Shown: positions 6,501 to 57,128 of the stretch, piece by piece | Numbering within the stretch: position 1 is the stretch's first letter | How the letters are laid out: the number at the start of each line of letters is the position of its first letter | Assembly (NCBI GenBank): GCA_000004985.1 | Contig: GG738878.1 | From: Naegleria gruberi | Lineage: Eukaryota | DNA: 64,000 nucleotides | Strand: one strand, 5' to 3' | The notes under the pieces: generated by a model | What the model was told of the DNA's origin: nothing | What the model saw: the letters and a program-made list of their open reading frames with translations, nothing else | Database searches by the model: none | Translations under genes and position numbers: made by a program

Positions 6501-9500
6501 AATTGATTGCTCCTCTTTGTATCAAATCTCTATCACCTTCTTTCTCAGCGAAAAGTTCAGAGGCAGATGCACTGGAGAAAACATATTTGTAATTCAGAGT
6601 GACCACAGAACCTTTGGTCTGATCATAGAGGCCAAGAATTTCCTTGTAAAGAGATGTAGGTTCACTAAGATCCAACAGTTGGATATTTCTTAAACTTCCA
6701 GAAATCGCAACGCTATCTAAATCAATTAGGCATGATATAGTGGTACCAGCATTGATTAATAATTGGGCTATGGTTATACCATTGCTTAGGATAAATACAT
6801 TGGACTCTCCAGCTGTAATTGATGTTGTAAGAAGTTTGCAACTTTCTTGATTACCATCCAATAGCATTTTGGCTATTTCACTAAACTGTTGACCAGCATC
6901 TACTTCATCCTCATCAGGAACATAAGAATAATAATTAATCTTGTTAAAGGCTGATATTTGATCGATAATATCTTGCAAGTCGTAACCGTAGTCAATAAAA
7001 GTAGAGAGAATGGAGGGCTCAACAAAACATTGTAAGCTCTTGAACTCGATTTTGAGTAACATTTGAGAAGAAGGATCATAAATTAAAGAGGTAGGATCTG
7101 TAGATCTGGTGAATGAAACATTGACCAAGTGTTCTTCTGGATTGTTTTCATCTTCTATTGATTTGATAATGTAAAATTCTCTATCTTGCAAAATTTCTGA
7201 TTTTACGTTCATAGAGTGAAGGAATAATTGAATGTTGGTATCCAGATTGTGGTACTGTCGGAAATAAGCGTTCAGATGGGAAAAGTGAATAGAAGCCAAG
7301 TTGAAACTTTGATGAGAAAGAGTCAGTATGAATGAATTCAACTTGAATCTTATGGCTATGAGTACACCTTGTTTTTCTTCCTCCTCATCATCTTCATCGT
7401 CAGAAAAGCTTGCTTCTTTCAAAATATCAGTAATATCATCAATAAAGAAGCTTGTATCGAATGAGTAAATAAACATTCTTAGGGTTGTGATCCAATTTTC
7501 TGTTTCATCCAGAGATGAACATTTGAATTGAATAAATTTCGTTTGATAACCCTTCTTTTGTGGAAGTTCCAATATAAATGTATTTTCTATAGTGTCTGAT
7601 TTGTGTACTTTGGTATGCTTGTTCAAATGTATAATAACATGAAGAAGTCTTGTATCTTCTGTATAAATAAATATCTTCTTAGTACTGCTCACTTCTACGA
7701 AGTAAGGCACAAATTCATTATCTTCATGATTGACTTGTAGAGTTCCCATAATTTTCAAGTCGTTAATTTTCTCCTTTGTACCAGTTGGGTTTTGTTTGAA
7801 TTCTGCTACTAATTGTGTCAACTTTGAAACAGCAAGCATACTCTCTTTGGAAAGAATAAAGTTAATCTTTGGAATATCAAGCAAGAGTTGAACTTTTTCT
7901 TCCACGGTTTCTTCTTTGTGTTTAATAGCACTTGCTGCCAGTGAGGTCTTTTCTAAAATAACATCATATGTAGTAATTTGTTGTTGGTCTGTCAGATATC
8001 CAATAGCATTAATATCTTTAGGAACAACAATTTCCATATTTTCCAGATTGATATCGAACTTTTCTCTGGAAGCTATGCTAGTATCTTTACGCAGTTTGAG
8101 CAATCCAAAATCAAGTAAAAGGAATCTACTGTCAGGATCTGTTGGATTCCAAGGAATGATGATTTGTGGAGCCTTGATATCGAAGGTTAGATCCACAGTG
8201 GTGTCATCTTGCATAAGAACTTCCTTAATCTCCTTTTTGGCCAATTTAGATACTTTCTTGATATGCCTCTTGGCTTCTTTTTCTAAGCGTTTGATATTGA
8301 CATTGTCAAAGTATAAGAATGAAAGTATTCTTTGGAAAAATTCAAAGTTAACTACAATATCGATTTGATTAAGAGCTACCGTCAAATAAATATCACTCTC
8401 TTCATTCTTTTTCTCCAAAGTAGATCGCTTCTCAATGTACAAAGAAAGAAGGTTAGAGGAAGTTTCATTGTACCTTTTAGATTTTGTAATAATTTCAGGA
8501 TAAAGAGTTTGCTTGAATCTATCGAATAATGTTAAATTACCCATAGAAGAACAAACTTTGAATGCTTTGTGAGGTAAAATTTGAATATCTGATACGAATC
8601 TATCTACTTCAAGTTCTAGTAAATCATTTCTTTCGTGATAGACCCTAAATGCTACCTTGGCCAAATCTACGTGGACTCTAACCTTTACATAGTCATCAGG
8701 TATTTCAACGGGTTTCTCTTCATAACCTATAGATTTGTACAGTTCTTCTTTCACCTTATCAGAAAGCTCAATAGCCTTTGCTTGTAGTTTATCTTTCGAG
8801 AACCAGCTTGATTTCTTTTTATGCTCTTCGAAATTCTTTGCTTCCTGATTAATTTCCTTATGTGCACACTTTCTGAAGAACAGAACTTCCTGCAGTGTTC
8901 TTTGATCTTCCAGCTCAGCTAATCTCTTCTCTTCATCTGGGCTGAGCTTTTGCTTGGTTACCCACGGAACTTTTACATGAGTTTTGTAAAGCTTGACGTA
9001 TTCTTTACAATGTAAGCTCAAAATATTTTCATAATGTTGCTTTTTCTTGTCCATTTGTCTCTGAAAATTAACACATTTGAGGGCATACTTCCAATAAGAA
9101 ATGGGGTCAAATTTCTCAGGTCTAAAATGTCGGTATTGGCTTTGGATTGAATAATTTGTAATATATTCCACAATTTTAAAAATGGAATTATACTGATTCT
9201 GACTCAAACACATCTGAATATCATGCACAAAGTGAAAATCAAAATTAAAAACTGGTCTTGTAAAATCTATCCCTGAAGCGGAGAGCTTTTGCATAGTAAG
9301 CTTCAAAAATCCGTCTACTGGTTCCAACAAGTACACTCTGTCATTGGCTTTGATAATGCTCTGTATTATGTCTCTATCGCAAACTTTCTTTTCTATACAT
9401 GTATTTACAAAATCTTCTTTCTCTGTCCAAGGATTCAAATATATCGCCAGCTTGGACATGGTCAATAATTTATAAGTTAATTCTCCTAAATTTTTCTGAA

Positions 9501-10080
9501 ATTTAGTTTCAAAGTTTTCATTTGTAGAATTTACTTCCATACTCTCTAAATAAAATCCACCAACACAGTTATTATCATCTTGATATCGGATATGAATATT
9601 CTCAATTTTAATCTTTAAATTATTTAAAACTGTTTCTATCAACTTGTCGAAAAATCCTTCTTCTGTTTTTTCATCACCTGTACTAGCTGCTGCCTTTTCT
9701 GCTTTGGCAGCTTCTTGTTTTTCAAATTGATCCAATACGTGTTTTTTTAAATCTCGTTGCCTTTGTTTTTCCTCTTCTTCAACAAATGGTCTTCTCATCT
9801 TCGGACGAAGAACAATATATACATCCTTCAATCTACAAACAACAGATTTAGCATTTAAACTTGTATAGGGAACATCAAATTCAAGAAGGGATATGTGACT
9901 AAAAGAAATATAAAAAGGTATTGAATCCGAAATATTATCCAAAGCATACTCCTTCAATTTAATATCATTCAAAGAAGCAACACCTTTCAATACAGCAATA
10001 TTTAAATTCTTCCGATCAAAATTATCAACATATTGTTGCAAGTATGGTACAAGCAAACTAGATACAATATTCTCAATCAT
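550..10080 (-). CDS. VPS13: VPS13-family bulk lipid-transfer protein (3176 aa, single exon)
   Basis: Uninterrupted 9.5-kb ORF. The N-terminus MIENIVSSLLVPYLQQYVDNFDRKNLNIAVLKGVASLNDIKLKEYALD matches the chorein-N motif of VPS13/ATG2. The C-terminal region (DLFYEPMEGITKSPKDFTLGLAKGTTSFFKHSIHGTF..., then a PH-like end) matches the VPS13 C-terminal ATG-C/PH region. ATG at 10080 sits in an A-rich context. Confidence 0.85.
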   Translation of the reverse strand: MIENIVSSLLVPYLQQYVDNFDRKNLNIAVLKGVASLNDIKLKEYALDNISDSIPFYISFSHISLLEFDVPYTSLNAKSVVCRLKDVYIVLRPKMRRPFVEEEEKQRQRDLKKHVLDQFEKQEAAKAEKAAASTGDEKTEEGFFDKLIETVLNNLKIKIENIHIRYQDDNNCVGGFYLESMEVNSTNENFETKFQKNLGELTYKLLTMSKLAIYLNPWTEKEDFVNTCIEKKVCDRDIIQSIIKANDRVYLLEPVDGFLKLTMQKLSASGIDFTRPVFNFDFHFVHDIQMCLSQNQYNSIFKIVEYITNYSIQSQYRHFRPEKFDPISYWKYALKCVNFQRQMDKKKQHYENILSLHCKEYVKLYKTHVKVPWVTKQKLSPDEEKRLAELEDQRTLQEVLFFRKCAHKEINQEAKNFEEHKKKSSWFSKDKLQAKAIELSDKVKEELYKSIGYEEKPVEIPDDYVKVRVHVDLAKVAFRVYHERNDLLELEVDRFVSDIQILPHKAFKVCSSMGNLTLFDRFKQTLYPEIITKSKRYNETSSNLLSLYIEKRSTLEKKNEESDIYLTVALNQIDIVVNFEFFQRILSFLYFDNVNIKRLEKEAKRHIKKVSKLAKKEIKEVLMQDDTTVDLTFDIKAPQIIIPWNPTDPDSRFLLLDFGLLKLRKDTSIASREKFDINLENMEIVVPKDINAIGYLTDQQQITTYDVILEKTSLAASAIKHKEETVEEKVQLLLDIPKINFILSKESMLAVSKLTQLVAEFKQNPTGTKEKINDLKIMGTLQVNHEDNEFVPYFVEVSSTKKIFIYTEDTRLLHVIIHLNKHTKVHKSDTIENTFILELPQKKGYQTKFIQFKCSSLDETENWITTLRMFIYSFDTSFFIDDITDILKEASFSDDEDDEEEEKQGVLIAIRFKLNSFILTLSHQSFNLASIHFSHLNAYFRQYHNLDTNIQLFLHSMNVKSEILQDREFYIIKSIEDENNPEEHLVNVSFTRSTDPTSLIYDPSSQMLLKIEFKSLQCFVEPSILSTFIDYGYDLQDIIDQISAFNKINYYSYVPDEDEVDAGQQFSEIAKMLLDGNQESCKLLTTSITAGESNVFILSNGITIAQLLINAGTTISCLIDLDSVAISGSLRNIQLLDLSEPTSLYKEILGLYDQTKGSVVTLNYKYVFSSASASELFAEKEGDRDLIQRGAINYRQFLSMDTSAIKYVHIQRFYHKAQNYISGPLLNALKRESTRNKLAEVGLKGKDIISKRIINNQIKLNIKITSPVVIFPSNFQSKDHFLAHLGNLVVENFLEGNSDTPIDHVSVLLNDIMLEFISDASNDHEKIVSDIFIKVDVKKPIITPFTKTKDNNEFDITKEVVFVDFSEINFNLTHRQYQIIFDFINGNIRDGMRDVNEERKFYKSIGTLVTRRKKKDLLLKRVSSEKTIEKFSSNIIITDVYVTAPNISLLILKSNGSNFAKLSVSNFQLNNKIDINDCIHMNMTLGSIIASDMRQDTTNVFSNFIEFSDPNGCFSMIYENDKTNLVETVNLKLSNPKLVIIPELLLDFRHFFSDTKYFQNDRLAELLMVGTNIDDISQYEVVLEENNKLLKPSSSSLLLKGDFGTPQLVIPEASSDVNSRLLVLKFSSSIDFKSTEGGLSEKGIFKISGLSILVEHGNRTLPLVDSTDVDIDIMRISSQEDKEERIIKVLLLRGGNTRLSYFDVKMFYNIAQQFKRQMEKPSILVEEDITQIIEQCALAEAKPKSIIAKDFKEMISDELLPKMLVNKIIVDLKSISILVVDDLSGFDIPIVKLQLGGFKLNSLIKSLGPQDNHISAYLEFLAYGDCYNFKNAEWEPIIEKNKIPIHCVYQNQKESPNHIVQIECEDVINLNITYSALETVVSTAKAWIKELEQDTVKQKELAVTFEPFNIINKSGLKASFKITNEVTALEQDQEIHFSFPPSYSDRNQYLDLNIEGTIIKVLANKDGIHGYSILVSNKEFGQLEHHVFIEIKDKNKRKTIIVHSGCKIRNKTDRVWQLGCFIGEQVVSLGVLSPFKSIYLPTNLVVENATLTLRPCKDLNSEHSEYKWSRNDPLLYSISTLRKSHAKTIITQNKHATNKKDHFYCILNSKSSHNKMTKINIIPPLAIQNVLQEDLQFALFGSSTKDENIKIAKYNGFIKKGDTHFVYKIDMQKPKLWIQTIIQGWQTKDINLIYSNSSTEQEDISLNFSNFYTTGRILNLKYDVTSTSNTYLKIVVHCPYLIMNYTDFSIEVEDSSKENCLLGCKTTVNNKESLMFNYTDEKSLIFSKKVVLKTSDGFSSPPFSIDSVGASSEVVLQHASDKSKVPLKLGTFVTLANEKYERTKVVIITPRYLLVNGLYSKDNKSLEIEAKQFGDETHIYSIQQTKPCHFYWTMNAEEMETIKVDNPLLMHFYRKKTPMICVRLKTGDVLSEWSTPFTIDTLGEIPLIVNGNFITAKITETNGCVHVHFTRAALPPYFIVNKTTHSISVSQVYTGEYISISPNQTIPYTAPDIKSKHSIHVTLADKYKLGAIDIDKVKKSKIITISQLKKKVLIRLTTYRGYTRVISILEKFSEQEVLPEIENEEEESQTDLIQSFVFLKGIGISIINHLQKELLYMLAESLSFNFNVTDKNKQFLEFKMNRLSIDNQMENCTFPILLTNANKLGLRDFLHFSMIIDTKEKDFDYIPYLSLLMQEAKLSVDFRFAHEVFEMVKSLKGKKVNNEKQIVLSKIDTSAESEIDEIIPDFDHNIYSNPQSDRMIYFEYFELHPIKVDLSFVFNEISTESDSDLSILLRTLGARLSMNVDEAPIRLNALILNHPPLTSRFQLMENVKSHYTRYAIQEMFAILGSFDILGNPIGLFNDIDKGVYDLFYEPMEGITKSPKDFTLGLAKGTTSFFKHSIHGTFNTASKVTESISNGISLLTMDEDYQVKRKEANHLSKRPKHIGEGILSGAQSLSLGLFEAGTGIFTKPIEGASKEGVSGFFKGIGKGIIGIPVKPVTGVLDFVYKTSEGLKNTTQYFDRDANVTRKRFPRYVGADKKLNPYDQNLAFGNYVYNLIRKDPSFGETTYVKHFFTNTPAIILVGDKHLFKVECTEGDKVYSVGNPPPTEVIMENIKIVWSYDSKSIFQVKPGEKESVVIRVVSSGSWFSFGNQYEDIVLNVDSTHELISVLHKMNK

Positions 10081-11534: not shown

Positions 11535-11895
11535 GCTAATAAGACATTTAACTATTGGCACCTTAGCAGTGAACTACTCAGTAGTACAGTAATCCCAATA
11601 ATCAATTGATTGAAACCTCTTTGTAATTTAAATCATCTTTTTGTAAATTAATTAAACAAAACTCACCTCTTGACGCCTCTTTGCAAATCTTTCATATAAC
11701 CGAGTTGCTAATTTTGTAATTATTTAGAAGAATCTCCACCTCAAAGAACTACATTGAGCCCACAACTACTGCTTCGACTCTAGCCAAATTAACACCAACA
11801 AAAAAAAGCACCAAACAAAATGGTTTCCGACACCAATAACAACAATCAGAGTTGTGCACAACAATTGGATCGCCGACAATTTTTTCATTAAGAAT

Positions 11896-14067
11896 ATGGT
11901 AACAAATTTGAACCATTTTATATATGTGAATATGACAAGGAGTGCAGTGGTGGGAATGCTGCAAATTTTGTGTCAAATAAGCTATGGACCTACATTACCT
12001 CTGCATATATTTTCAGTTTATAAGCTTCTAATTTCTACAGTAACTTTTTATTTTAGTAGACCTCTAGCAATTGTTTCTGCATCAATATTTGTTACATTTA
12101 ATGCTGCTGCTCTTGGTATTTCATTTTGGGTGAATTATGATTCATTAACACAAATCGAAAGGGATTACTTTCCTTTTAGATTTATAGAAATGTTGGTAGT
12201 ATTATATAGCGTGTTTATTGGATCAATGCTTTTCTCAATATTCATTACAGATAAGAATAAGCAATATACAGCTCAACAAATTGAAACTACGAAGGAAAAA
12301 ATTATTAGCTCTGAAAAGACAAAATATATTGCCAATTTGAGTCATGAAGCTAGAAATCCTTTGCACGCCATTAGTGGATCTATTTCAATCCTCAAACATA
12401 ATATCCAATCTGAAGAATGTAGTAATCAATGTCCTCACTGCTATGTAACAAATGGTTCTATAGCTGAATTAGTTGAAGACCTGGAAGAAAACACAACATT
12501 ATTGGAGCATATATTCTCGTCTTCATTACAAGTTAGCTCACTTGAAATGGGAAAAGTTGAGTTAAAAGTTGAAGATACTAACATGTTATGTCTAGTTGAA
12601 TCAATTACTAGTGTTTTCTCTCAATTGGCTAAAACCAAACAACTTTCACTTCACAGTTACTTTAATGTAATTAAGGTTCCAATTTTTTTGAGAGCAGATT
12701 CTGTTAGAGTAAGCCAAGTGGTAATGAATCTTATATCTAATGCCATTAAGTACACAGATAAGGGACATATTAAATTGAATTGTGATACTCTGAGTGAAAG
12801 AGAAATTCGCAAACACTTTCCAACAAAAAGTATTGAAGAGTATGAATTTATCAAAATTGAGTGTATAGATACAGGTAAAGGAATCCCTGAAGCACAAGTT
12901 AAGGATCTTTTCAAACCATTTCATGTTGTTGAACAAGGTCAAAAATCTGTTGACAGCTATATTGCTCAAACAGAAAAAATGGCAGAATTCAAAGATATTA
13001 ATGGTGCTAGTATGTTACTCAATACTAGTCGTAGCAATGGCCTCGGATTATCTATATCAAAAATGCTTATTGATAAGATGGAGGGTGATATTATTGTTTC
13101 CAGTAGTTCGAAAGGTACTAACATGACTATCATTTTACCACTGAGAAGGGTTAAGCCAGAAGTATTGAAGGAAGAACTGGTTCAGAAGAATAACAATTAT
13201 TTAACATGTGACAAGATTTTTGAGATTTTGAATGAAGAAAATGAAAGATTGAATATTATAATTATTGATGAGGATAGATTTTTCAGACACATTATGCTCT
13301 CCTATTGGAAGATGTTTAAGAGAGCTGTTCACATTAGTGCAGAGTATAAAACAAGTATAGAATTTTGTGATTCAGAATTAGACAAGGATTTAATGCAAAA
13401 TACCACAGTTATTTTCTGCCCTGAAAAAGATATCAAACATACAGAGTCCAATTTCAAACATGAACGAGTAGTTTTGATTCCAACCATTTGTAGAGGTAGT
13501 CATAGATTATTTTCGGATCGTATCTACCTTTCCAAGCCAGTGAAATTTATAGATTTGTTGGAATTTGTCTATGAACATATTTTTGATAGAACTGCTTCCT
13601 CCACTCATAGACAAAGTGTTGTGGAAATTGAGAAAATACCAAAAATAATGAAAACCAAGTCAGTACCAGTAATTGAAGAATTCAAGAGTGAAAAAAAAGT
13701 TCTTATAGTTGATGACAATCACCTAAATCTTAAAATATTGGAAAAACTCCTTAGAATATTAGGTTTTGAAGACATTGAAGTTGCCCACGATGGTATGGAA
13801 TGCTTCAACAAGTATAAGAAGAAGAATTATGATATTATTTTATTAGATTGCATAATGCCTATTCTAAGTGGAAAAGAATCTTGTGAGCTTATCAGAAACA
13901 TGGAAAAGCAAGAACACCTAGAACATAGAATCCCAATATTAGCAATCACAGCAAATGTTTGGGAAGATAGAGAATCTCTTATATCTCAAGGTTTTGACTC
14001 TGTTATTTACAAACCTATTCAGCTGGAGAAACTACAAGCAGAAATGATGGCTTTATTGGATGATTAA
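11896..14067 (+). CDS. Hybrid sensor histidine kinase (TM region, HisKA, HATPase_c, receiver domain)
   Basis: H-box ANLSHEARNPLHAISGSISIL. N/G1/G2 boxes MNLISNAIKYTDKGHI / DTGKGIP / NGLGLSISKMLIDKMEGDIIVSS. C-terminal receiver KVLIVDDNHLNLKIL...ILLDCIMPILSGKE...ITANVWEDRE...YKPI. Several hydrophobic segments lie before the kinase. The listed ORF start at 11854 is GTG, so the first ATG at 11896 (MVTNLNHF...) is used. An upstream exon cannot be excluded. Confidence 0.8.
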   Translation: MVTNLNHFIYVNMTRSAVVGMLQILCQISYGPTLPLHIFSVYKLLISTVTFYFSRPLAIVSASIFVTFNAAALGISFWVNYDSLTQIERDYFPFRFIEMLVVLYSVFIGSMLFSIFITDKNKQYTAQQIETTKEKIISSEKTKYIANLSHEARNPLHAISGSISILKHNIQSEECSNQCPHCYVTNGSIAELVEDLEENTTLLEHIFSSSLQVSSLEMGKVELKVEDTNMLCLVESITSVFSQLAKTKQLSLHSYFNVIKVPIFLRADSVRVSQVVMNLISNAIKYTDKGHIKLNCDTLSEREIRKHFPTKSIEEYEFIKIECIDTGKGIPEAQVKDLFKPFHVVEQGQKSVDSYIAQTEKMAEFKDINGASMLLNTSRSNGLGLSISKMLIDKMEGDIIVSSSSKGTNMTIILPLRRVKPEVLKEELVQKNNNYLTCDKIFEILNEENERLNIIIIDEDRFFRHIMLSYWKMFKRAVHISAEYKTSIEFCDSELDKDLMQNTTVIFCPEKDIKHTESNFKHERVVLIPTICRGSHRLFSDRIYLSKPVKFIDLLEFVYEHIFDRTASSTHRQSVVEIEKIPKIMKTKSVPVIEEFKSEKKVLIVDDNHLNLKILEKLLRILGFEDIEVAHDGMECFNKYKKKNYDIILLDCIMPILSGKESCELIRNMEKQEHLEHRIPILAITANVWEDRESLISQGFDSVIYKPIQLEKLQAEMMALLDD

Positions 14068-25859: not shown

Positions 25860-28610
25860 TTAATCATCAATGCAAATAATCTCTGGTGCATCCGTTTTTG
25901 ACTTTTTGTTTGGTGGTTCAATTGAAGATGAGGGAGCAACTTCTAGTTGAAGTGTCGAATTATTATCTGTTGACTCTTCAGGTGGGGTTCTTCTCTTTTT
26001 CAATAAAGATTCCAGTTTAGTTTTAGCTGCATTGTTAAGTTCGGTTGCCTGTTTCACAAGTCTCTCAGAGATCACAAGTTTTGTTAAAATAATTGATTTC
26101 TGAACTCTTTGTTTCTGTATTTCCCTAATTGGAGCAACCATCGATTCAATGTGTGAAAGTTCCTTAACTAGGCCAGTGATTGAACAAGTTCTCTCTGTTT
26201 CTGACCATAAAAATTGTTTTAGAATCTTACAGTCACTACAAATACATGAAATACTAGATTTCACAGAAAAATTTGGTAGGGGAATAATGAACTTCTTTGT
26301 TCTAATTCCATCATCAATTAAATCAATGCTCCAGTTCAGTAGGATATCTAACTGGTCAGATTTAGGCATAATATTCGAAACAACCTCAATGAGTGGAGCG
26401 ACTAGGGTGCTATAATTCTCTTCTGATGCAACACTAAGAACAACGCGGCATGCTCTAGTAATAAAATCATTCCATGAATGGTTATGGAGCATTCGAATGA
26501 AGGAAGTTGCGAATTTCAAATCAAGGAAACAATCTCGATGGTCATATAACATCCATTCTATCAATAATTCACTCAGAGGTTTACAACTCATTGTTGATAA
26601 CACCATATTCAAACAATTTTCACTTGTCAACCATTTAGAGAATGAAAAACGTAGATTTTTCAATTTTTCAACCCCAATTTGATTTGCAATTTTGATTATC
26701 AATGGAAGGTCCAGCTCTTTGTTTTCATAAGAACCTCTTCCTCTTTGATTTGGAATAGAGTTTTTAGCCAATTCTTTTACAATCAATTTCTCATAGATTG
26801 AGGTGTCCTTCAATAAGTCTATCAACTTTGTAATACTTTCCTTATAACTGGCATACTTATAATAATCTTCCACAATATTTTCTACTACTGTTGAATGCAT
26901 TGAATATGTACATTTTTGTGCAAGTATTATTAATTTTTCAAAGCAGCTGCTATCGTATAAATGGTCATACTTATTGACAGAATACTTTGGCATTGTCATT
27001 TGTATCAACGGCACGTCATTGATTTCAATTAGAGAGCCAATAAATTCCTTCATATATCGTTTTTTACATAAATTTTCGCTAATAGTTTCTCTAAACGGTT
27101 CAATTGTAAAATGAGAAATAAGAGAAGATAAACTTTTTTGGTCTATTCCGATAACCAGTTTTGCCAATTCGACATCATTGAGCTGAATAATAGATTGAAT
27201 TACAACTTTTTCTTCATCACCCCATAAGTAGATGTTTTTCTTGGCCAGCATCTGCTTTACAAATGCAATAGAATTCTCTCTAGAGTTTGACTCTATGAAT
27301 GAAGGTAATATTTTGCTACAAAATGAAAATCCAAACTTGAGGCAAATTCTTTGTTGGCACTTCTTTGGATAAATCATTAGACATGCATTTCTGTATTGCT
27401 TTTCTTTTGTTGACCCCTCATTTCCAGTATTTTCGTTAATGGACTTGTGGAATAGTTTCATGGAAGACAGAGCAGACTTGCAAACAACACTTCTGAAAGG
27501 AACGTCTATTTTACGTTGTTGGGATCCAAAAATATACTCGAGTGATACTTCTGGATCGTCAAAACCTTCCACCTTCCTCTCCATAATTCCTAAATCTAAA
27601 ACAAGGTCTTGATATTCCTCAGCATACCTTTCCAGAATATCGTAAATATTGTAATCAGAACCTTTAAGATTTTCAGGATCCAAACTCTTTTGAGAATATT
27701 GGTGCTGAAATACATACATTCTGTAGAGAGTGTCAACATCTTTTGCATCAGCATTCCACTCAGAAACTATTTGTTGAAGTCTTTTGGCTAATTCTTCATA
27801 ACCTTTAAGTGTTGGCTTACTTTCTTTGTTACCTGAAAAACAAAGGTTATATATCAAACAAACTCTGTAACCAGAATTTACATTCTTAATCATGTGCTCA
27901 CAATCTGCATAAAAAGAAATAAAGTGAGGAGTATATCTAGAAACAGATGCAAAATCATATTCTTCCTCTTCCTCTCCGTGTCTAACTATTATTTCACCTC
28001 CACTATATTCCGAAGGAAGTTGAACAACTAGTGTTCCAAACATTCGTTCTTCCTTTTCCGAATCTTTGTGAAATTGAAAGTGACCTCCCTCTTCATATAC
28101 TAATAGCTTGTATAAATTAGCTGAGAGTCTGAGATGTTTACTAATTCCCAAGCCATCCCTAATTTCATTATCCACTAAACCGTCAATCAAATCATCCCAA
28201 GTTGGATTTGTAATTTCAAATCTTGATGGATCTAATTGCCATGTTTTTCTAACATTTTCATCGTAAATTGTATCCTCTCCTCTTCCATATGGTGCCTTAC
28301 TGCAAAATTGAATTAGCTCTGAAGCACTCCCATTCGACAATGGAAATCCAATTGTTTTAAATTGTTCATTATCCAACTTGAGTTGCAAACCTGGTAAACC
28401 AAAATCGCTGTCCAATGCACCACACTGCGTAAATTTACTTCCTCCCTTGTTTTGAGCATCCAAAATAAATTCTTGTAAATTGTCTGATGTTTTAATGGTA
28501 TCAGCATGAAGTTGAACACAATCATCATAAAAATCGGAACCGTAAGCTTCACAATAGTCACTGTCTGTTTCCGATGATTCTGATGAGGAAGAAACTCTCC
28601 TTCTGGTCAT
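25860..28610 (-). CDS. 2-oxoglutarate/Fe(II)-dependent dioxygenase domain protein (P4H/PKHD-like DSBH core) with an unrelated C-terminal region of about 650 aa
   Basis: Residues about 150-270: LYKLLVYEEGGHFQFHKD (Y..GG...HxD), then ERMFGTLVVQL...GGEIIV, then ..CEHMIKNVNSGYRVCLIYN (second His, then Arg at +10). This is the canonical HxD...H...R facial triad and 2OG-binding pattern. The C-terminal 650 aa are helical and unassigned. Real ATG at 28610. Confidence 0.6.
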   Translation of the reverse strand: MTRRRVSSSSESSETDSDYCEAYGSDFYDDCVQLHADTIKTSDNLQEFILDAQNKGGSKFTQCGALDSDFGLPGLQLKLDNEQFKTIGFPLSNGSASELIQFCSKAPYGRGEDTIYDENVRKTWQLDPSRFEITNPTWDDLIDGLVDNEIRDGLGISKHLRLSANLYKLLVYEEGGHFQFHKDSEKEERMFGTLVVQLPSEYSGGEIIVRHGEEEEEYDFASVSRYTPHFISFYADCEHMIKNVNSGYRVCLIYNLCFSGNKESKPTLKGYEELAKRLQQIVSEWNADAKDVDTLYRMYVFQHQYSQKSLDPENLKGSDYNIYDILERYAEEYQDLVLDLGIMERKVEGFDDPEVSLEYIFGSQQRKIDVPFRSVVCKSALSSMKLFHKSINENTGNEGSTKEKQYRNACLMIYPKKCQQRICLKFGFSFCSKILPSFIESNSRENSIAFVKQMLAKKNIYLWGDEEKVVIQSIIQLNDVELAKLVIGIDQKSLSSLISHFTIEPFRETISENLCKKRYMKEFIGSLIEINDVPLIQMTMPKYSVNKYDHLYDSSCFEKLIILAQKCTYSMHSTVVENIVEDYYKYASYKESITKLIDLLKDTSIYEKLIVKELAKNSIPNQRGRGSYENKELDLPLIIKIANQIGVEKLKNLRFSFSKWLTSENCLNMVLSTMSCKPLSELLIEWMLYDHRDCFLDLKFATSFIRMLHNHSWNDFITRACRVVLSVASEENYSTLVAPLIEVVSNIMPKSDQLDILLNWSIDLIDDGIRTKKFIIPLPNFSVKSSISCICSDCKILKQFLWSETERTCSITGLVKELSHIESMVAPIREIQKQRVQKSIILTKLVISERLVKQATELNNAAKTKLESLLKKRRTPPEESTDNNSTLQLEVAPSSSIEPPNKKSKTDAPEIICIDD

Positions 28611-28657: not shown

Positions 28658-29767
28658 TCACAACACGTTTAAATGTAGTTCTACCTTTGCTGTGATATAA
28701 TCCCAATAATCAATCTCCAAATGATTGAGACCCTCTATTTCGACTTTGTAATTTAAATCTTTTTGTAAATTAATTTGAGTTTTTACAGTGTCATCCAATT
28801 CAAGTTGGGTGTTGTTTAGAGAGTTTATCTTTTTCAAATCCAATTCTTCCAGAGGCATCCAACAATCCTTCCACTTTGAAATCAATTGAGGAGCATTGTC
28901 AAAATCATTCAAATGAACTCCAATCCATGACATTCTGGAACAAGTTTGAAGCACCCAATAATGCCAATCTTCGGTGGAGTCTACACAACTATGGATGGTC
29001 AGATTCTCCTTCTCATTTTCAAATGATAACGAACCATTCATGTAAACATTGGCAATTTCAGCTCCATAAGGATCACCATCTGTGAGTGTGAAAATATTCA
29101 AACTTCTCCTTTGATATTTTGCTACTTGCTTTGTTAGTGTTACAATAAAATCTCTTGTTGGAACATCAGGATATCCCTTAGATGTGATTATTAATGATGT
29201 ATCTTTGAGACTGCTTGCTTGACTTTTCAACACTTGAAAAACTGACTCTTTTTCAACAATGATCACCTTATCTACTTCAACAGGGATAGAGAACTCTACA
29301 ATTTGTAAATGAGGAATCGAAGGAAGATTACACCCTTTAGAAGCACTGACTATAGTTGTTGTTGGTTGTTGTCCTCTATTTTCAATATCAATCAATGAGA
29401 TTTCCTTCCAAGCAATTGGTCCACAAACTTCTCCCTTCGATTGAGGAACAATATGAAGATCATGCCTATTAACTCGCCAACTTGATGATAAATCCTTCAA
29501 TATGGAATCTAGTTGTGTCTGATCTTTTAGAATAGGCTTGTTACAATAATACAAATCTCTCTTGGTTGAAAATTTGTTTAAAGTACACAACTGATACACT
29601 AAATTCATCACCTGAAACTTGGAAATAAATGTTGATGGATATTTGGTCAGATCTTTCAGCAAGAAGCCTTTTTCATTCGGAATATCAGATGATGGTGATG
29701 AAACTAATTCCCTCACAAAGGCTAAAACTTTCTCCTCAATTCTTTCTCTCACTTGAATTGTTTCCAT
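28658..29767 (-). CDS. SPO11: SPO11 / topoisomerase VI subunit A homologue (meiotic double-strand-break transesterase)
   Basis: Winged-helix 5Y-CAP region with catalytic Tyr in FSTKRDLYYCNKP. Toprim domain with the conserved Glu in VIIVEKESVFQVL. ..LIITSKGYPDVPTRDFI.. and the DxD metal motif in IFTLTDGDPYGAEIANVY. All are in the order and spacing expected for Spo11/Top6A. 369 aa. Confidence 0.85.
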   Translation of the reverse strand: METIQVRERIEEKVLAFVRELVSSPSSDIPNEKGFLLKDLTKYPSTFISKFQVMNLVYQLCTLNKFSTKRDLYYCNKPILKDQTQLDSILKDLSSSWRVNRHDLHIVPQSKGEVCGPIAWKEISLIDIENRGQQPTTTIVSASKGCNLPSIPHLQIVEFSIPVEVDKVIIVEKESVFQVLKSQASSLKDTSLIITSKGYPDVPTRDFIVTLTKQVAKYQRRSLNIFTLTDGDPYGAEIANVYMNGSLSFENEKENLTIHSCVDSTEDWHYWVLQTCSRMSWIGVHLNDFDNAPQLISKWKDCWMPLEELDLKKINSLNNTQLELDDTVKTQINLQKDLNYKVEIEGLNHLEIDYWDYITAKVELHLNVL

Positions 29768-29820: not shown

Positions 29821-30441
29821 TTATTGGGTTGGTTTTGACTTAGCAGCAAGAAGTTTTACTCTTCTGTTATATTCTTCACGATTAGTGACATAGAGATGGA
29901 AAGGTTCAGCTTGAGCAGGATCCTTTTCGTTAGGATTATCCAACAATTCTTGAATACCTAAAAGTAATTGTTTGACAGTGAGAGAAGGCTTCCAATCCTT
30001 ATCTTCATTCAAAATACTCAAACAAACAGTACCACTTGGGAAAATGTTTGGATGGAAAAGTGGTGGTACAAATTTACACTTTGGAGGCTTGTCTGGATAT
30101 TCATCAGGGAATTCAATATCTAATCTATATTCACCTCCTTCCCATATTGTACCTGGTTTACCTGGGATACCACAATTCCATACCATTACATTAGTTGTTC
30201 CGTCTTCTTGTTGTTGAGGTCTGGCCCAGAAACCCTGTTATTGTTGTTGTTGTTAATTTTCATCACACAATTTTGTCAATTATTGTCATCATTAAAATCA
30301 ATTTAATTATTTGGTGATCGGAAGAAAATATTCTTTATATATCGATATTAAATTACACCTCAAAACAATACATACATAAGGGTGGTCCTTTCTCCAGTTC
30401 TTTCTCTCTTCCATAACTCTCTTTCTAGCGATGGAGGACAT
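29821..30441 (-). CDS. UBC9: UBC9 SUMO-conjugating E2 enzyme, two exons 30441..30376 and 30234..29821
   Basis: Exon 1 [22 protein letters not shown]|GTATGT. A 141-nt intron follows. Exon 2 [112 protein letters not shown].. is collinear with UBC9 (RKAWRKDHPFGF...[47 protein letters not shown]). Confidence 0.9.
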
Positions 30442-30827
30442 TTTGTTCAATTTTTGCTTTTTTTTAAATTTTTGAAAACAATTTTTATTTTTATTAAAAA
30501 ATTGCATGGCGCGGATTTCTACAAGCTTCCTGCTCAACATTCAGCAGAGAACAATGTTATTTGTTTAATGACGAATTCATCATCTGTGCTACCAAAGAAT
30601 TAATAACAAGGATTTAATTGTGTGGAAACAATTATTTTCTTCCACTATTTAGTGTAAGAGAATAATAATAGAGAAGAACAAAACGTGATTGTATTAACAT
30701 TGATGGATTTTCAACCACATGACTATGAAATTGGTTATCATGAAATTCCGAGAACCCTCTCATAGAATATTTTCTCTAGATTTTGAATTGGTGGGCAGAA
30801 TAGAAGTGCCAACAGGTTACTATTTGG

Positions 30828-31193
30828 ATGTTAGTCTCACAAGTACATAATGCATTGGTTGTTGGTCGGGGTGATAATTTGATTTTCTTTGATTTGCAAT
30901 CAAAAAAGCTATTATTTCATTACACCATTCGTCTAAAAATTCAAAATTTGATAATTAAGGAAAATGATTTGTTCATTGTTTGCTCAGACTACTGTTTGAG
31001 GAGCCTTAATTTTCCAAGGTCTTCAAAAAAACAGGTATCACCAAAAGAGGGACAGAGTTTTTATTCAATATTCTATGACGAGGATAGCCACCGAATTTTT
31101 GTTACTAATTCCTCTAACGTATTTGTGTTTGATAGAGAGCTTAACATGTTGAAATCATTTGCTTTGGGTTCAAGATTGGATTGTATGGAGTGA
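30828..31193 (+). CDS. Hypothetical ORF (121 aa), weakly beta-propeller-like; status as a gene uncertain
   Basis: ORF only. The segment ..HRIFVTNSSNVFVFDREL.. is WD-strand-like but has no firm motif. It may be an exon of a larger unresolved gene between UBC9 and the Ubl gene. Confidence 0.25.
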   Translation: MLVSQVHNALVVGRGDNLIFFDLQSKKLLFHYTIRLKIQNLIIKENDLFIVCSDYCLRSLNFPRSSKKQVSPKEGQSFYSIFYDEDSHRIFVTNSSNVFVFDRELNMLKSFALGSRLDCME

Positions 31194-31285
31194 GAATTGA
31201 CCCAAAAACAGGATATTGTTATTTGTGTGAAAGTACTGATGGCACAATTTCAATTTTCAAATAAGTTTTTGTTGTAATTTTTGTA

Positions 31286-31570
31286 ATGAGTTCTCAACAT
31301 GAACTTTGGTGTATGCATGACACGAAACATCAAAAAAAAATGCAAATACAAGTCAGAACATTATCAGGAGGTTACCTCAAGTTTGATTTGGAAAATTCAG
31401 ATAAAATAATATATTTGAAGAAACTCATTGAGGAAAAGATTGGATTTAGCATTGTCAATCTACGATTAGTATATAATGGAAAGATTCTCCCAGACGATTC
31501 CTCAATAATCGATACTGGCTTAAAGAATGGTGATATCATTCATCTCACTCCCCAATTAAAAGGAGGTTGA
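31286..31570 (+). CDS. Small ubiquitin-like protein ending in a free Gly-Gly (possible ubiquitin-like modifier)
   Basis: MQIQVRTLSGGYLKFDLENSDKIIYLKKLIEEKIGFSIVNLRLVYNGKILPDDSSIIDTGLKNGDIIHLTPQLKGG-stop aligns position-for-position with ubiquitin (MQIFVKTLTGK...[35 protein letters not shown]). An in-frame upstream ATG at 31286 would add 18 residues; otherwise the start is at 31339. Confidence 0.6.
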   Translation: MSSQHELWCMHDTKHQKKMQIQVRTLSGGYLKFDLENSDKIIYLKKLIEEKIGFSIVNLRLVYNGKILPDDSSIIDTGLKNGDIIHLTPQLKGG

Positions 31571-33967: not shown

Positions 33968-35461
33968 TTATTCCTCTTCCAAGTTAGAAGTACTGCCGTT
34001 GGTGTTGATTTGTGGTTTTCTGTATTGAAGAGTCGGAGCTTCAAGGAATTGTTTTGCCTCTTCAACCTTATTCTGACTCACAAACTTGAGAACAACGTCT
34101 ACAATTAATTTGACATGATTATTTTCATTAATGTGTCTGGAAATGTCAAACATGAGTTTTTTAAGGGTGTTTGAGGTAATGTTCTTATTGATGTAGTTGG
34201 CTAATTCTCGTTGAGTTGGATTTTCTTCCATTATTTTCTTAACACGTTGCAGTGTTCTTTCAGAGAATTGATCAATGACATTCCACAGTTCATCATTGAA
34301 TGTTTTTAAATATTCCTTTTCCTCTTCAGTGTTTAGAATTGGAATCAAATCATCAATTCCTCCCTCTAAAACTAACCACCATGAGTGAGATTCATTGATG
34401 TAGTTGAATTCCAATCGTTGTTTCTTAAAGTGAATAGTACTGTACCAATCTGATTTTACCTTGTACATTTCACCATTCCAAAATCGAATAACGCATCCTT
34501 CAAAATCTGTCTTTTTCTTAATTTCAGCAATAATCTCTGCAATTGAATGCTGTTTATCTTCTTGGAAGTGAAATTCGGTTGATTTTACACAATCAATCGA
34601 GTACTTGTTGGCAATATTTGTCATTTCATCAAATTCAACATAATCACCATTAATGGTATCTCTAATAGCAATCAAACTCAATTGTGGTGAATCATAGATA
34701 ATTACAATCTTGTAATCTGGTGAGCAGAATTCAAAAATTGGTGTAAATCCTTTCTCAATATAATCCAAACAGAATCGGACTGTATTTTTGAGTTGAAATT
34801 GTGAAGAATTCTGTAAAAATTGATCAACTGTTGGTATTAATTGTTCATATTCCTCATTGGAAACTTCTCTCAACCCATACATGTACTTTTCACATCCTTT
34901 AGATGTGGAATTATGTCCAAAACCTTGTTTAGTTCTAAATCTGAGTCTCTTCTTCATTTCTCCATTCACCTCAATCGTTTCCAATATTGGAATTACCAAA
35001 CTTCCATCCAATTTATCCAAAACATGCATCTTCTTACTCAATTTAACACTCTCTTCCAACTTGTCTTGCACTTTCTTCATATTCGTCTCTTCCTTCTCTC
35101 CAACATTGAAGAATTTATGCAAACAACGTGAAACAAGCTTTCCAGATGCACTATCAAAGGCCAATCCTCTAATTTCCCTCCTAATTAAATCATCAATCGT
35201 TCTGATGGGTGAAGGAAACGTTGTAGAAGTCACTCTCCGATAACTAATATAAATAAAACCTCTTCCATCATTATTTACATTAAATTCCTTAGCATCTCCG
35301 ATGGATTTTAAACATTGATCCAAGCATTCAATAATTGGCCATCCTTGCTCTCCAACACTTTCACCCACAATAAATGGTGATGATGAGGTTTCTGTTGTTG
35401 TTGTTGTTGTATGATCTTTTTCTGAGGTTGGGGGTGATGATTGTTGTTGTTGTGGAATCAT
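33968..35461 (-). CDS. ATP-dependent RNA ligase of the T4 Rnl1 / tRNA-ligase adenylyltransferase type (497 aa, stand-alone)
   Basis: Covalent nucleotidyltransferase motifs in canonical order. Motif I is KLDGSLV (..KKMHVLDKLDGSLVIPIL), matching the T4 Rnl1 KEDGSLV signature rather than the KxDGxR of DNA ligases and capping enzymes. Motif III is TPIFEFCSP. Motif IV is EGCVIR. Motif V is YKVKSDWY. The C-terminal 170 aa are helical and contain no kinase P-loop or CPDase motif. Confidence 0.75.
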   Translation of the reverse strand: MIPQQQQSSPPTSEKDHTTTTTTETSSSPFIVGESVGEQGWPIIECLDQCLKSIGDAKEFNVNNDGRGFIYISYRRVTSTTFPSPIRTIDDLIRREIRGLAFDSASGKLVSRCLHKFFNVGEKEETNMKKVQDKLEESVKLSKKMHVLDKLDGSLVIPILETIEVNGEMKKRLRFRTKQGFGHNSTSKGCEKYMYGLREVSNEEYEQLIPTVDQFLQNSSQFQLKNTVRFCLDYIEKGFTPIFEFCSPDYKIVIIYDSPQLSLIAIRDTINGDYVEFDEMTNIANKYSIDCVKSTEFHFQEDKQHSIAEIIAEIKKKTDFEGCVIRFWNGEMYKVKSDWYSTIHFKKQRLEFNYINESHSWWLVLEGGIDDLIPILNTEEEKEYLKTFNDELWNVIDQFSERTLQRVKKIMEENPTQRELANYINKNITSNTLKKLMFDISRHINENNHVKLIVDVVLKFVSQNKVEEAKQFLEAPTLQYRKPQINTNGSTSNLEEE

Positions 35462-53876: not shown

Positions 53877-55154
53877 TCAATATAATCCCTTATATGTAAG
53901 TGATGTTAATTGTTTCATTTCCCTTATATATTTGACTCCTTCATCACCAATTCGATTGGCACGAATATTAAGTGATATCAACTGTTTCATTTCACTTATC
54001 AATTTGGTTCCTTCATCACCAATTTGATTGTAAGAAATATCAAGTGATTTTAATTGTTTCATTTCACTCATAGATTTGGCTCCTTCATCACCAATTCGAT
54101 TGCCAGAAATATTAAGTGATGTTAATTGTTTCATTTCACTTATTAATTTGGCTCCTTCATCACCAATTTGATTGTTAGAAATATCAAGTGATGTTAATTG
54201 TTTCATTTCACTTATCAATTTGACTCCTTCACCACCAATTTGATTGTTAGAAATATTAAGTGATGTTAATTGTTTCATTTCACTTATCAATTTGGCTCCT
54301 TCATCACCAATTAGATTGTCAGAAATATTAAGTGATGTTAATTGTTTCATTTCACTTATAAACTTGGCTCCTTCTACACCAATTAGATTGTCAGAAATAT
54401 CAAGTGATGTTAATTGTTTCATTTCACTTATGAATTTGGCTCCTTCACCACCAATTTGAGTGAAACCAATATTAAGTGATGTTAATTGTCTGGTTTCACT
54501 TATCAATTTGGCTCCTTCATCACCAATTTCATTTTCACAAATATTAAGTGATATCAACTGTTTCATTTCACTTAGATATTTGGCCCCTTCTACACCAATT
54601 CGATTGCAACAAATATTAAGTGATGTTAATTGTTTCATTTCACTTATCAATTTGGCTCCTTCATCACCAATTAGATTGTCAGAAATATTAAGTGATGTTA
54701 ATTGTTTCATTTCACTTATCAATTTGGCTTCTTCATCACCAATTTCATTTTTACCAATATTGAGTGATATCAACTGTTTCATTTCACTTATCAATTTGGC
54801 TTCATCACCAATTCCATTGCCAGAAATATCAAGTGATGTCAATTGTTTCATTTTGCTAATGAATTTGGCTTCTTCAAAAGAATCAAGCAACCAATCAGAA
54901 TATGTAACATTAACAATACAATTCATAAATTGACTTTTCAAAAATAATTGAACTCGTGTCTTTGTAAATTTTTTGTTAAATTGAATAGCAAGTTTTGAAC
55001 GTTCCTTGATCACATTAAAGAATTGTTTTGAAATCAAGGAACAATTATTTAAAATAAACCATGAATCATCAATCATGGAAATTATTTCAAAACAAATGTC
55101 ATCTGAAAATATTTCTTGTTCCACTTTCACACCCTTTTTTACTTTCTCTTCCAT
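53877..55154 (-). CDS. F-box / leucine-rich-repeat protein (RNI-like 24-residue repeats), copy 1 of a tandem pair
   Basis: N-terminal F-box-like segment EIFSDDICFEIISMIDDSWFILNNCSLISKQFFNVIKERSKL. It is followed by about 13 near-identical repeats of LISEMKQLTSLNISxNxIGDEGAK. Real ATG at 55154. Confidence 0.7.
   Translation of the reverse strand: MEEKVKKGVKVEQEIFSDDICFEIISMIDDSWFILNNCSLISKQFFNVIKERSKLAIQFNKKFTKTRVQLFLKSQFMNCIVNVTYSDWLLDSFEEAKFISKMKQLTSLDISGNGIGDEAKLISEMKQLISLNIGKNEIGDEEAKLISEMKQLTSLNISDNLIGDEGAKLISEMKQLTSLNICCNRIGVEGAKYLSEMKQLISLNICENEIGDEGAKLISETRQLTSLNIGFTQIGGEGAKFISEMKQLTSLDISDNLIGVEGAKFISEMKQLTSLNISDNLIGDEGAKLISEMKQLTSLNISNNQIGGEGVKLISEMKQLTSLDISNNQIGDEGAKLISEMKQLTSLNISGNRIGDEGAKSMSEMKQLKSLDISYNQIGDEGTKLISEMKQLISLNIRANRIGDEGVKYIREMKQLTSLTYKGLY
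53900..54850. repeat. Tandem array of about 13 units of a 72-bp coding repeat (24-aa LRR unit) inside F-box/LRR gene copy 1
   Basis: Recurring ..ttaagtgatgttaattgtttcatttcacttatcaatttggctccttcatcaccaattagattg.. with 72-bp periodicity. The antisense + strand ORFs (NCFISLINLAPSSPIR...) are mirror translations of the same repeat. Confidence 0.8.
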
Positions 55155-55436
55155 ATTATTATTATTAAAATTGTTAGTGAATATTATTTGTTAAATATCT
55201 CCTCCGAATTAATGAATTGCTGATTTTCAAATTCTTATTTTTTTTTAAATGAGAAAATTTACACAGTTCGGACGATCATATGTTTTTTTAATAAATATTT
55301 AATATTTACTATTAGATGTAATTAGAAAAGTTGGGATAGGAAGATAGGAACTATTGTGCTTTGAAATATTTACATGAACCAATTTTATTCACCGAGTACA
55401 AATCAAACAATATTATATTGAATAATAAGAAAGATA

Positions 55437-55715
55437 GGGAAAACAATTTGAACGTGCTCAATACTTTGAATCACAACACAAATCCAGATTTATTGAATTG
55501 TTCTTTGCAGATTAAGTAAGAACTCACAATTTGTTAATGTGTATGAAAGGAACTTACAAAATTTCACACGGAATTTTATGTTTATCTTCAGGCAGAAATT
55601 TCCTTACTAGATTAAACTACCCATTCTATAACAAAAATAACAAAATCACATTCCGTATGAAATTCCAATCAAGTGATAACATTGATAAGTTATAGAATAA
55701 TGTTCATTTCTTCAA
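55437..55715. repeat. Paralogous downstream block of LRR gene copy 2, with an internal inverted repeat
   Basis: Same shared strings as 53385..53640. It additionally contains aaatttcacacggaatt ... cattccgtatgaaattcc, an inverted pair about 110 nt apart. The 32-nt segment gataagttatagaataatgttcatttcttcaa (55681..55712) occurs reverse-complemented at 53796..53830. Confidence 0.6.
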
Positions 55716-55772
55716 ATACAAGCAAGAGTCTTTAAAGCTAAGATTGGGAAGGTCTTCACTCAATTTAATCCC

Positions 55773-57128
55773 TTATATGAGCGTAATTGATGTTAATTGT
55801 TTCATTTCACTTATCAATTTGGCTCCTTCACCACCAATTCGATTGTCAGCAATATTAAGTGATGTTAATTGTTTCATTTCACTTATAAGTTTAGCTCCTT
55901 CTATACCAATTTGATTGTAAGAAATATCAAGTGATTTTAATTGTTTCATTTCACTTATCAATTTGGTTTCTTCATCACCAATTTCATTGTTAGAAATATT
56001 AAGTAATGTTAATTGTCTCATTTCACTTATCAATTTGGTTCCTTCATTACTAATTCGATTGCTACGAATATTAAGTGATATCAACTGTTTCATTTCACTT
56101 ATCAATTTGACTCCTTCTATACCAATTCTATTGTTAGAAATATTAAGTGATCTTAATTGTCTCATTTCACTTATGAATTTGGCTCCTTGATTAACAATTC
56201 GATTGGCACGAATATTAAGTGATATCAACTGCTTCATTTCACTTATCAATTTGGCTCCTTCATCACCAATTAGATTGTTAGAAATATTAAGTGATGTTAA
56301 TTGTTTCATTTCACTTATCAATTTGGTTCCTTCTATACCAATATCACTTTCACCAATATTAAGCGATGTTAATTGTCTCATTTCACTTATCAATTTGACT
56401 CCTTCAATACCAATTCGATTGCCACAAATATTAAGTGATGTTAATTGTCTCATTTCACGTATGCATTTGGCTCCTTCAACATCAACTTGAGTGTAAGAAA
56501 TATCAAGTGATGCTAATTGTTTCATTTCACTTATATATTTGGCTCCTTCATCAATTTCATTTTTACCAATATTGAGTGATATCAACTGTTTCATTTCACT
56601 TAGATATTTGGCTCCTTCATCACCAATTAGATTGGCAGAAATATCAAGTGACGTTAATTGTTTCATTTCACTTATCAATTTGGCTTCTTCATCACCAATT
56701 CCATTGCCAGAAATACTAAGTGATGTCAATTGTTTCATTTTACTAATGAATTTGGCTTCTTCAAAAGAATCAAGCAACCAATCAGAATATGTAACATTAA
56801 CAATACAATTCATAAATTGACTTTTCAAAAATAATTGAACTCGTTTCTTTGTAAATTTTTTTTTAAATTGAATAGTAAGTTTTGAACGTTCCTTGATCAC
56901 ATTAAAGAATTGTTTTGAAATCAAGGAACAATTATTTAAAATAAACCATGAATCATCAATCATGGAAATTATTTCAAAACAAATGTCATCTGAAAATATT
57001 TCATGTTCCAGTTTTACAACCTTTTTTGATTTCTCTTCCATATTATTATTATTAAAATTGTTAGTGAATATTTCCTCCGAATTAATGAATTGATGATTTT
57101 CAAAATCTTGTCTGTTTCGTTTGCTCAT
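55773..57128 (-). CDS. F-box / leucine-rich-repeat protein, copy 2 of the tandem pair (longer N-terminus)
   Basis: Same F-box segment and the same 24-residue LRR units (GAKLISEMKQLTSLNI..). About 80% nucleotide identity to copy 1 in the repeat block. It has a 30-aa N-terminal extension MSKRNRQDFENHQF.. Real ATG at 57128. Confidence 0.7.
   Translation of the reverse strand: MSKRNRQDFENHQFINSEEIFTNNFNNNNMEEKSKKVVKLEHEIFSDDICFEIISMIDDSWFILNNCSLISKQFFNVIKERSKLTIQFKKKFTKKRVQLFLKSQFMNCIVNVTYSDWLLDSFEEAKFISKMKQLTSLSISGNGIGDEEAKLISEMKQLTSLDISANLIGDEGAKYLSEMKQLISLNIGKNEIDEGAKYISEMKQLASLDISYTQVDVEGAKCIREMRQLTSLNICGNRIGIEGVKLISEMRQLTSLNIGESDIGIEGTKLISEMKQLTSLNISNNLIGDEGAKLISEMKQLISLNIRANRIVNQGAKFISEMRQLRSLNISNNRIGIEGVKLISEMKQLISLNIRSNRISNEGTKLISEMRQLTLLNISNNEIGDEETKLISEMKQLKSLDISYNQIGIEGAKLISEMKQLTSLNIADNRIGGEGAKLISEMKQLTSITLI
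55790..56770. repeat. Tandem array of about 13 units of the same 72-bp LRR-coding repeat inside F-box/LRR gene copy 2
   Basis: Same unit as in 53900..54850, with diverged copies. The reverse-strand ORFs 55963..56820 are repeat artefacts. Confidence 0.8.

Follow-up and report, generated by a model that had tools for sequence, protein, structure and literature searches.

A ubiquitin/NEDD8-like protein family found in heterolobosean amoebae and its tail-less member in Naegleria gruberi

Few ubiquitin-like modifiers exist, and most of them go back to the last common ancestor of eukaryotes; those specific to one lineage, for example ISG15, FAT10 and FUBI, have been described chiefly in animals. 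Modifiers that are made as precursors and conjugated via Gly76, namely ubiquitin, NEDD8 and SUMO, are characterised by a fixed Gly-Gly with an unconserved short tail behind it. URM1, ATG12 and FAT10 are tail-less modifiers, translated with the conjugating glycine at the C-terminus and requiring no processing protease. Arg72 of ubiquitin is required by Uba1 and excluded by the NEDD8 E1, and residue 72 is Ala in animal and plant NEDD8 and Thr in yeast Rub1. Leu71 of ubiquitin is contacted by E1 enzymes. Canonical NEDD8 is typically at least 50% identical to human NEDD8. Cullins and a complete COP9 signalosome have been reported from Naegleria (PMC9928731, PMC4860701), and N. gruberi ubiquitin differs from human ubiquitin at about 3 positions (PMC9741609); we found no Naegleria NEDD8 sequence in the literature. 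A ubiquitin-related protein, Gcp4, co-occurs with the mitochondrial type II secretion system, and the N. gruberi gene (NgGcp4) lies on scaffold ACER01000016.1 (Horvathova et al. 2021, PMC8134430 and its supplementary data).

The gene described here lies in a 64,000-nucleotide stretch of the N. gruberi genome (the window; contig GG738878.1 of assembly GCA_000004985.1), where an earlier note made from the sequence alone had pointed out a divergent ubiquitin-like open reading frame (ORF) at 31286-31570 on the plus strand (Table 1). The ORF is present, and its last 76 codons (31340-31567) translate to MQIQVRTLSGGYLKFDLENSDKIIYLKKLIEEKIGFSIVNLRLVYNGKILPDDSSIIDTGLKNGDIIHLTPQLKGG. This protein has the ubiquitin fold, with a match far above chance: the Pfam ubiquitin profile PF00240 (clan CL0072) is hit at E=3.6e-14 and 52.7 bits versus a cut-off of 25.4, whereas the SUMO-type Rad60-SLD profile reaches 29 bits. 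AlphaFold, run on an alignment of 12 family sequences, confidently predicts a beta-grasp (pLDDT 91.3) that has strands at 2-6, 12-16, 41-45 and 66-71 and a helix at 23-34, in the order beta-beta-alpha-beta-beta-beta; residues 72-76 form a flexible tail (block mean pLDDT 66), and Foldseek aligns the model to ubiquitin and NEDD8 structures with TM scores of 0.88-0.92. The alignment of residues 1-76 to residues 1-76 of ubiquitin and NEDD8 chains in the PDB is gapless; the earlier note had likewise aligned the protein to ubiquitin over all 76 positions, but the ubiquitin identity is 36% and not roughly 30%. The protein keeps Leu8, Val44, His68, Lys27, Lys33, Lys48, the hydrophobic core and Q72-L73-K74-G75-G76. 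Sequence and model thus agree with that note on Leu8, the beta-grasp core, the xLxGG end, the replacement of Arg72 and Arg74 by Gln72 and Lys74 and the absence of Lys63 (Asn63, with Lys62 adjacent). Its statement that Lys48 is lacking was mistaken, however: Lys48 is present (Asn46-Gly47-Lys48) and is K in 11 of the 12 aligned family members.

Translation likely starts at ATG 31340, which the note had placed at 31339, and would yield 76 residues, the alternative being a 94-residue form. The choice of start is based on four observations: all relatives begin at a Met aligned to ubiquitin Met1; four of them carry an in-frame stop 3-27 codons upstream of this Met, with no ATG between; the window ATG is immediately preceded by a run of eight A; and the upstream extension is not conserved. 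A similar A-rich context precedes the ATG of the next gene (31757) and some of the relatives' starts, which were compared over positions -12 to -1 at loci L001 and L002. The 18-codon extension is therefore probably 5' untranslated sequence rather than part of the protein. With the start at Met19 of the ORF there is no SUMO-type N-terminal extension, in agreement with the earlier claim.

Table 1. Positions of features in the window and identifiers of related proteins
Feature	Position or accession	Strand	Basis or remark
76-residue ubiquitin/NEDD8-like coding sequence (MQIQVRTLSGG...HLTPQLKGG) plus TGA	31340..31570	+	ORF, PF00240, ubiquitin/NEDD8 alignment, model, dN/dS
TGA stop	31568-31570	+	Directly after the Gly76 codon
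In-frame 18-codon upstream extension (MSSQHELWCMHDTKHQKK)	31286..31339	+	Absent from relatives
Run of eight A, immediately 5' of ATG 31340	31332..31339	+	Sequence
TAA in frame with the ubiquitin-like ORF	31262-31264	+	Three-frame translation; 75 nt 5' of ATG 31340
Gln72-Leu73-Lys74-Gly75-Gly76 codons, presumed conjugation end	31553..31567	+	Family signature; 12-sequence alignment
Thr70-Pro71 codons, N. gruberi-specific deviation	31547..31552	+	Family alignment (Ile/Met70-Leu71 in the family)
Lys48 codon AAG	31481..31483	+	Gapless alignment to ubiquitin K48
UBC9 (SUMO-conjugating E2), one intron	29821-30186 plus 5' exon ~30440-30505	-	1.1 kb from the ubiquitin-like gene
Small upstream gene, no Pfam match	30719-31264	+	Spacer to ATG 31340 of 75 nt, unusually short
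Spo11/topoisomerase VI-A homolog	28658-29767	-	TP6A_N + Toprim
916-residue protein, weak 2OG-Fe(II) oxygenase match	25860-28610	-	Homolog at L002 12166-15150
T4-type RNA ligase	33968-35461	-	XP_002675422.1
VPS13 lipid-transfer protein	550-10080	-	
Hybrid histidine kinase	11854-14067	+	
Two tandem leucine-rich-repeat proteins	53877-57128	-	
Relative, N. fowleri	XP_044567623.1 (FDP41_010889)		Type A
Relative, N. lovaniensis	XP_044542366.1 (C9374_012794)		Type A
Relatives, Willaertia magna	ABK040_002648 (P0156), ABK040_003816 (P0157)		
Relatives, environmental	P0001, P0154, P0155, P0158-P0163, P0166-P0171		
P0158 loci	L005 10001-10243, L006 3878-4120		No NCBI record in the collection

The gene is probably unannotated in N. 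gruberi. Neither the 76- nor the 94-residue product occurs in a collection of 15 billion proteins, which suggests that the gene is missing from the public annotation, and a search with the window protein returned no N. gruberi entry containing its sequence. The two ORFs flanking the gene are identical to N. gruberi XP_002675421.1 and XP_002675422.1; the latter carries no name beyond 'predicted protein' but belongs to the T4-type RNA ligases (PF09511, E=6.6e-35) and has a KxDG nucleotidyl-transfer motif. Gcp4 is likewise a small N. gruberi ubiquitin-fold protein missing from the public annotation, so that annotation of this genome seems to miss short ubiquitin-like genes systematically. The two proteins are nevertheless different: Gcp4 has 69 residues, no Gly-Gly end and a sequence unlike that of the window protein. 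Identity with Gcp4 was rejected, as NgGcp4 (from the PMC8134430 supplement) gave no BLASTP alignment to the window protein at E <= 100.

Iterated searches with growing alignments, together with cluster look-up, identified approximately 17 relatives in Naegleria, Willaertia and environmental assemblies. A single-sequence, word-indexed search found one relative only, and two further rounds with growing alignments were required, in which profile E-values for family members went down to 1e-44. In a HMMER search over 1.84 billion representatives, no single-domain relatives were listed and polyubiquitins dominated, because the scores of repeated domains add up. A metagenome scan gave one unrelated match of 33%, and a viral scan gave no match, which leaves a viral origin without support. 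The family is uncharacterised and so far restricted to these genera and assemblies, in keeping with the lineage-specific character proposed earlier. Its heterolobosean members are annotated merely as hypothetical or 'ubiquitin-like domain-containing'. All relatives measure 74-82 residues after trimming of ORF over-extensions, and their stand-alone genes span 77-82 codons. We defined family membership (the LQLKGG proteins) by a gapless identity to other members of 49% or more and by a Q/M72-L73-K74-G75-G76 end, and the window protein shows 49-75% gapless identity to the members together with the Q72 version of this end.

In the alignment of 12 sequences, L73 and K74 never vary and Q72, G75 and G76 hardly do, and the C-terminus follows the pattern (Q/H)68-L-(I/M/T)-(L/P)-(Q/M)72-L-K-G-G. 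After Gly76, all complete relatives carry a tail of 1-6 residues (among them SL, CL, CF, RF, N, F, LQ, QL, TCYS and GHNKNL). By analogy with the precursor-made modifiers, variable tails after a fixed Gly-Gly bear the signature of processed and conjugated proteins. Only the window protein, among complete members, stops at Gly76. The earlier description of a protein encoded in its mature form is correct in that TGA directly follows Gly76, but this is a peculiarity of N. gruberi and not of its family. Two environmental sequences deviate in other ways. P0158 (…LMLMLKGGTCYS) has Met72, as well as Arg48 where the other aligned members have Lys. In P0163, 12 extra residues (GSIFSNKINSNV) separate positions 46 and 47 and may be an unspliced in-frame mini-intron.

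Compared with ubiquitin, the window protein shares the fold, the length, Leu8, the hydrophobic patch at residue 44 (Val44), His68, Lys27, Lys33, Lys48 and the xLxGG end, whereas it lacks Arg72, Arg74, Lys6, Lys11, Lys29 and Lys63 and is encoded by a single unfused ORF, with neither polymer nor ribosomal-protein fusion and no conservation across eukaryotes. Its low identity, Gln72 and unfused gene uphold the earlier conclusion that it is not ubiquitin, and its LKGG rather than QTGG end, weaker Rad60-SLD match and missing conserved N-terminal arm the conclusion that it is not SUMO. Compared with NEDD8/Rub1, it shares the gapless 76-residue beta-grasp, a non-basic residue 72, Leu73, Gly75-Gly76, a stand-alone gene and K22, K27, K33, K48, E31 and E32, and its relatives share the short removable tails. 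It differs in an identity to human NEDD8 of 37%, in having Gln72 instead of Ala or Thr and Lys74 instead of Arg, in lacking Y59, P19 and P37-P38, in evolving fast within one genus and in having several paralogs per genome. Like URM1, ATG12 and FAT10, it ends in the glycine as encoded and would require no processing protease; unlike them, it is the tail-less exception, in one species, of an otherwise tailed family, and the subfamilies are unrelated. With the other heterolobosean LQLKGG proteins (51-59% identity over 76 positions), the window protein shares the last five residues up to Gly76 and a stand-alone, single-exon gene. The window protein differs from them in the missing tail, in T70-P71 and N40-L41, and in lying, with P0001, on a separate long branch and in another genomic neighbourhood.

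Whether the family is nearer to NEDD8 or to ubiquitin depends on the query. The window sequence alone favours RUB1/NEDD8 (47-51 bits) over single ubiquitin (35 bits), also with tblastn (57 versus 48). This preference is not shared at the family level: a six-member profile gives 71 bits to Arabidopsis RUB1, 65-68 to human NEDD8 and 65-69 to ubiquitin, and identities are 34-49% to ubiquitin and to NEDD8/Rub1 alike (ubiquitin and NEDD8 being 58% identical). The earlier exclusion of NEDD8 therefore stands for the window protein as a non-canonical sequence but was too strong for the whole family, given the equal scores and the non-basic residue 72. A neighbour-joining tree, with the ubiquitin and NEDD8 identities cross-checked by alignment and tblastn, supplies part of the phylogeny that had been called for: the family groups together (80% bootstrap) and so do the window protein and P0001 (92%), but with 76 sites and few references the tree does not settle where the family branches with respect to ubiquitin and NEDD8.

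The relatives fall into more and less conserved copies. N. fowleri type A and W. magna P0156 are 84-86% identical, and their loci are syntenic (TTI1 ... ubiquitin-like gene - PF01553 acyltransferase). Naegleria species are expected to be closer to one another than to Willaertia. However, identity between the window gene and N. fowleri type A reaches only 58-59%, against 75% with P0001, and the window gene lies outside the TTI1-acyltransferase synteny. On these sequence comparisons, we assign the window gene and P0001 to a fast-evolving subgroup, type G, distinct from the conserved type A of N. fowleri, N. lovaniensis and W. magna. Paralogs occur side by side: W. magna has two (P0156 and P0157); P0001 (GC 0.320) and type A P0154 (GC 0.326) come from the same ENA sample, the GC of the window being 0.329; and N. 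fowleri type A is accompanied by the divergent P0158, both with GC 0.36, in Logan SRR29240419 and ENA ERZ2098899. P0158 may be an unannotated N. fowleri gene. On the simplest reading, there appear to be at least two paralogs per genome, of which the window gene is the fast one, the N. gruberi type A copy being inferred from the metagenome sample.

On balance, we consider that the window gene is probably a stand-alone, intron-less gene for a conjugatable, lineage-specific paralog of the ubiquitin/NEDD8 type (type I). The architecture of a type I modifier is present, with a small stand-alone protein, a flexible Gly-Gly tail and relatives with variable extensions, and most likely the gene is not the principal NEDD8 of N. 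gruberi but an additional paralog specific to the lineage. In the proposed mechanism, the Gly76 carboxylate would be adenylated and thioesterified by an E1, handed to an E2 and joined to lysines of target proteins. Uba1 should reject the protein because residue 72 is Gln and not Arg, and the activator would then be the NEDD8 E1 or a dedicated E1. As the N. gruberi copy ends at Gly76, it would need no precursor-processing protease, and Thr70-Pro71 may alter its handling by E1 enzymes or deconjugating proteases. A cognate E1 had been suggested as a search target; no E1 (ThiF), dedicated E2 or protease gene was detected among ORFs of at least 180 aa in the 64-kb window beyond UBC9, the first gene in the local order UBC9, small unknown gene, ubiquitin-like gene and EamA transporter. 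UBC9 was rejected as the cognate E2: its scores are those of a canonical SUMO-conjugating enzyme (180 bits to UBC9 structures versus 109 to the next E2 class), and none of the relatives has it nearby. A tentative and rather doubtful extension of the preferred reading is that heterolobosean amoebae run an additional pathway apart from ubiquitin, NEDD8 and SUMO, with its own E1 and E2 and several paralogous modifiers, in which type G would be a processing-free variant, possibly protease-resistant owing to Pro71.

The window gene is under purifying selection, with dN/dS about 0.19 versus P0001, a rough value because dS (0.95) is near saturation. Its product departs from the family at near-invariant positions (Q40Q41 to NL, I70L71 to TP, loss of the tail), and these departures could mean that the ancestral function has been lost. 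Codon usage of the gene is at the genome background (GC3 0.30 versus 0.29, compared with 0.39 for type A P0154; the samples are small). There is thus some chance, although an unfavourable one, that the gene is a decaying or neofunctionalised paralog whose product is only a non-covalent binder, or a pseudogene in the making, as would be consistent with these departures and codon usage, with the longest branch of the family, with absence from the public N. gruberi proteome, and with Pro71 at the E1-contacted position. However, the ORF is intact, its dN/dS is low, the five C-terminal residues are retained along with L8, V44, K48 and the hydrophobic core, the structure model is confident, and a stop exactly past Gly76 leaves a conjugation-ready end and not a destroyed one. 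We therefore regard the window protein as a functional but divergent modifier, for which loss of conjugation seems unlikely though far from negligible.

It is less probable still that the window gene is a strongly diverged N. gruberi ortholog of NEDD8, conjugated to cullins via the NEDD8 E1 and E2 and removed by the COP9 signalosome. Naegleria should need a NEDD8, given its cullins and complete COP9 signalosome, and the bit scores of the window protein alone, its non-basic residue 72 and the NEDD8-specific states K22, E31, E32, Y45 and G64 seen by inspection would fit. So would the JGI name 'ubiquitin-like protein Nedd8' on three members (P0159, P0160 and P0168), but these names are automatic and lean towards NEDD8 because it is the sole reference of 76-81 residues. 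The identity to human NEDD8 is also low in an organism whose ubiquitin and UBC9 are highly conserved, the family profile erases the NEDD8 preference, and a type A copy coexists with P0001, the closest relative of the window gene, in one sample. Moreover, the N. fowleri copy shows just 58% identity to the window gene but 84-86% to its counterpart in the more distant Willaertia, and such drift within a genus is unexpected of an essential cullin modifier.

That the ORF is instead an exon of a larger gene, its product being a domain of a multidomain protein, is highly improbable: the stop of the small upstream gene lies in the same frame just 75 nt before ATG 31340, leaving a very short intergenic spacer, but that stop is an in-frame TAA, no YAG splice acceptor occurs between 31212 and 31345, the stop codon immediately follows Gly-Gly, the relatives are all stand-alone with differing neighbours, and the annotated gene models of W. 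magna and N. fowleri have one exon each and encode 78-82 residues. Splicing of the ORF into the neighbouring genes was rejected for want of an acceptor or a consensus donor. In all 8 distinct genomic contexts of the family (8/8), a stand-alone single-exon gene is found among unrelated neighbours, and together with the missing acceptor and the upstream stops of the relatives this supports the free modifier over the domain.

The preferred reading, an extra conjugatable paralog, is of modest scope, since nothing in the fold, the architecture or the presumed chemistry departs from the standard. What is new is a family member apparently missed by the public N. gruberi annotation and an uncharacterised, lineage-restricted family; this kind of protein tag is already known, and no new kind of system is involved. 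If a multi-paralog Gly-Gly family is limited to heterolobosean amoebae, among them the pathogen N. fowleri, it would represent either an extra conjugation system in an early-branching lineage or an unusually divergent, duplicated NEDD8. If these amoebae have a canonical NEDD8, then the family would be an additional modifier system; if they do not, then type A would be the NEDD8 of the lineage and the window gene a NEDD8 paralog. Either outcome would be informative on the part that residue 72 plays when E1 enzymes tell modifiers apart, with possible relevance to drug work on Naegleria neddylation. Since residue 74 is Lys, Lys-C digestion would leave a Gly-Gly remnant that distinguishes conjugates of this protein from those of ubiquitin.

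Around the gene, the only gene common to the window and the W. magna L002 locus is 2OG-oxygenase-like; the W. magna homolog lies ~2 kb from P0156, and its gene model adds Ras/Roc domains. Histidine kinase and CRAL-TRIO genes are present in both the window and the type A loci, but no alignment was obtained between them, so that microsynteny is confined to the oxygenase-like gene. The hybrid histidine kinase of the window includes a receiver domain. The small upstream gene, which probably ends at the in-frame TAA before the ubiquitin-like gene, could contain a short intron (GTGAG at 31190 ... AG at 31211). The Spo11/topoisomerase VI-A homolog is a meiosis-type gene, and to our knowledge no sexual cycle has been observed in the amoeba N. 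gruberi. Towards the left end of the window, VPS13 is encoded as 3176 residues in a single ORF.
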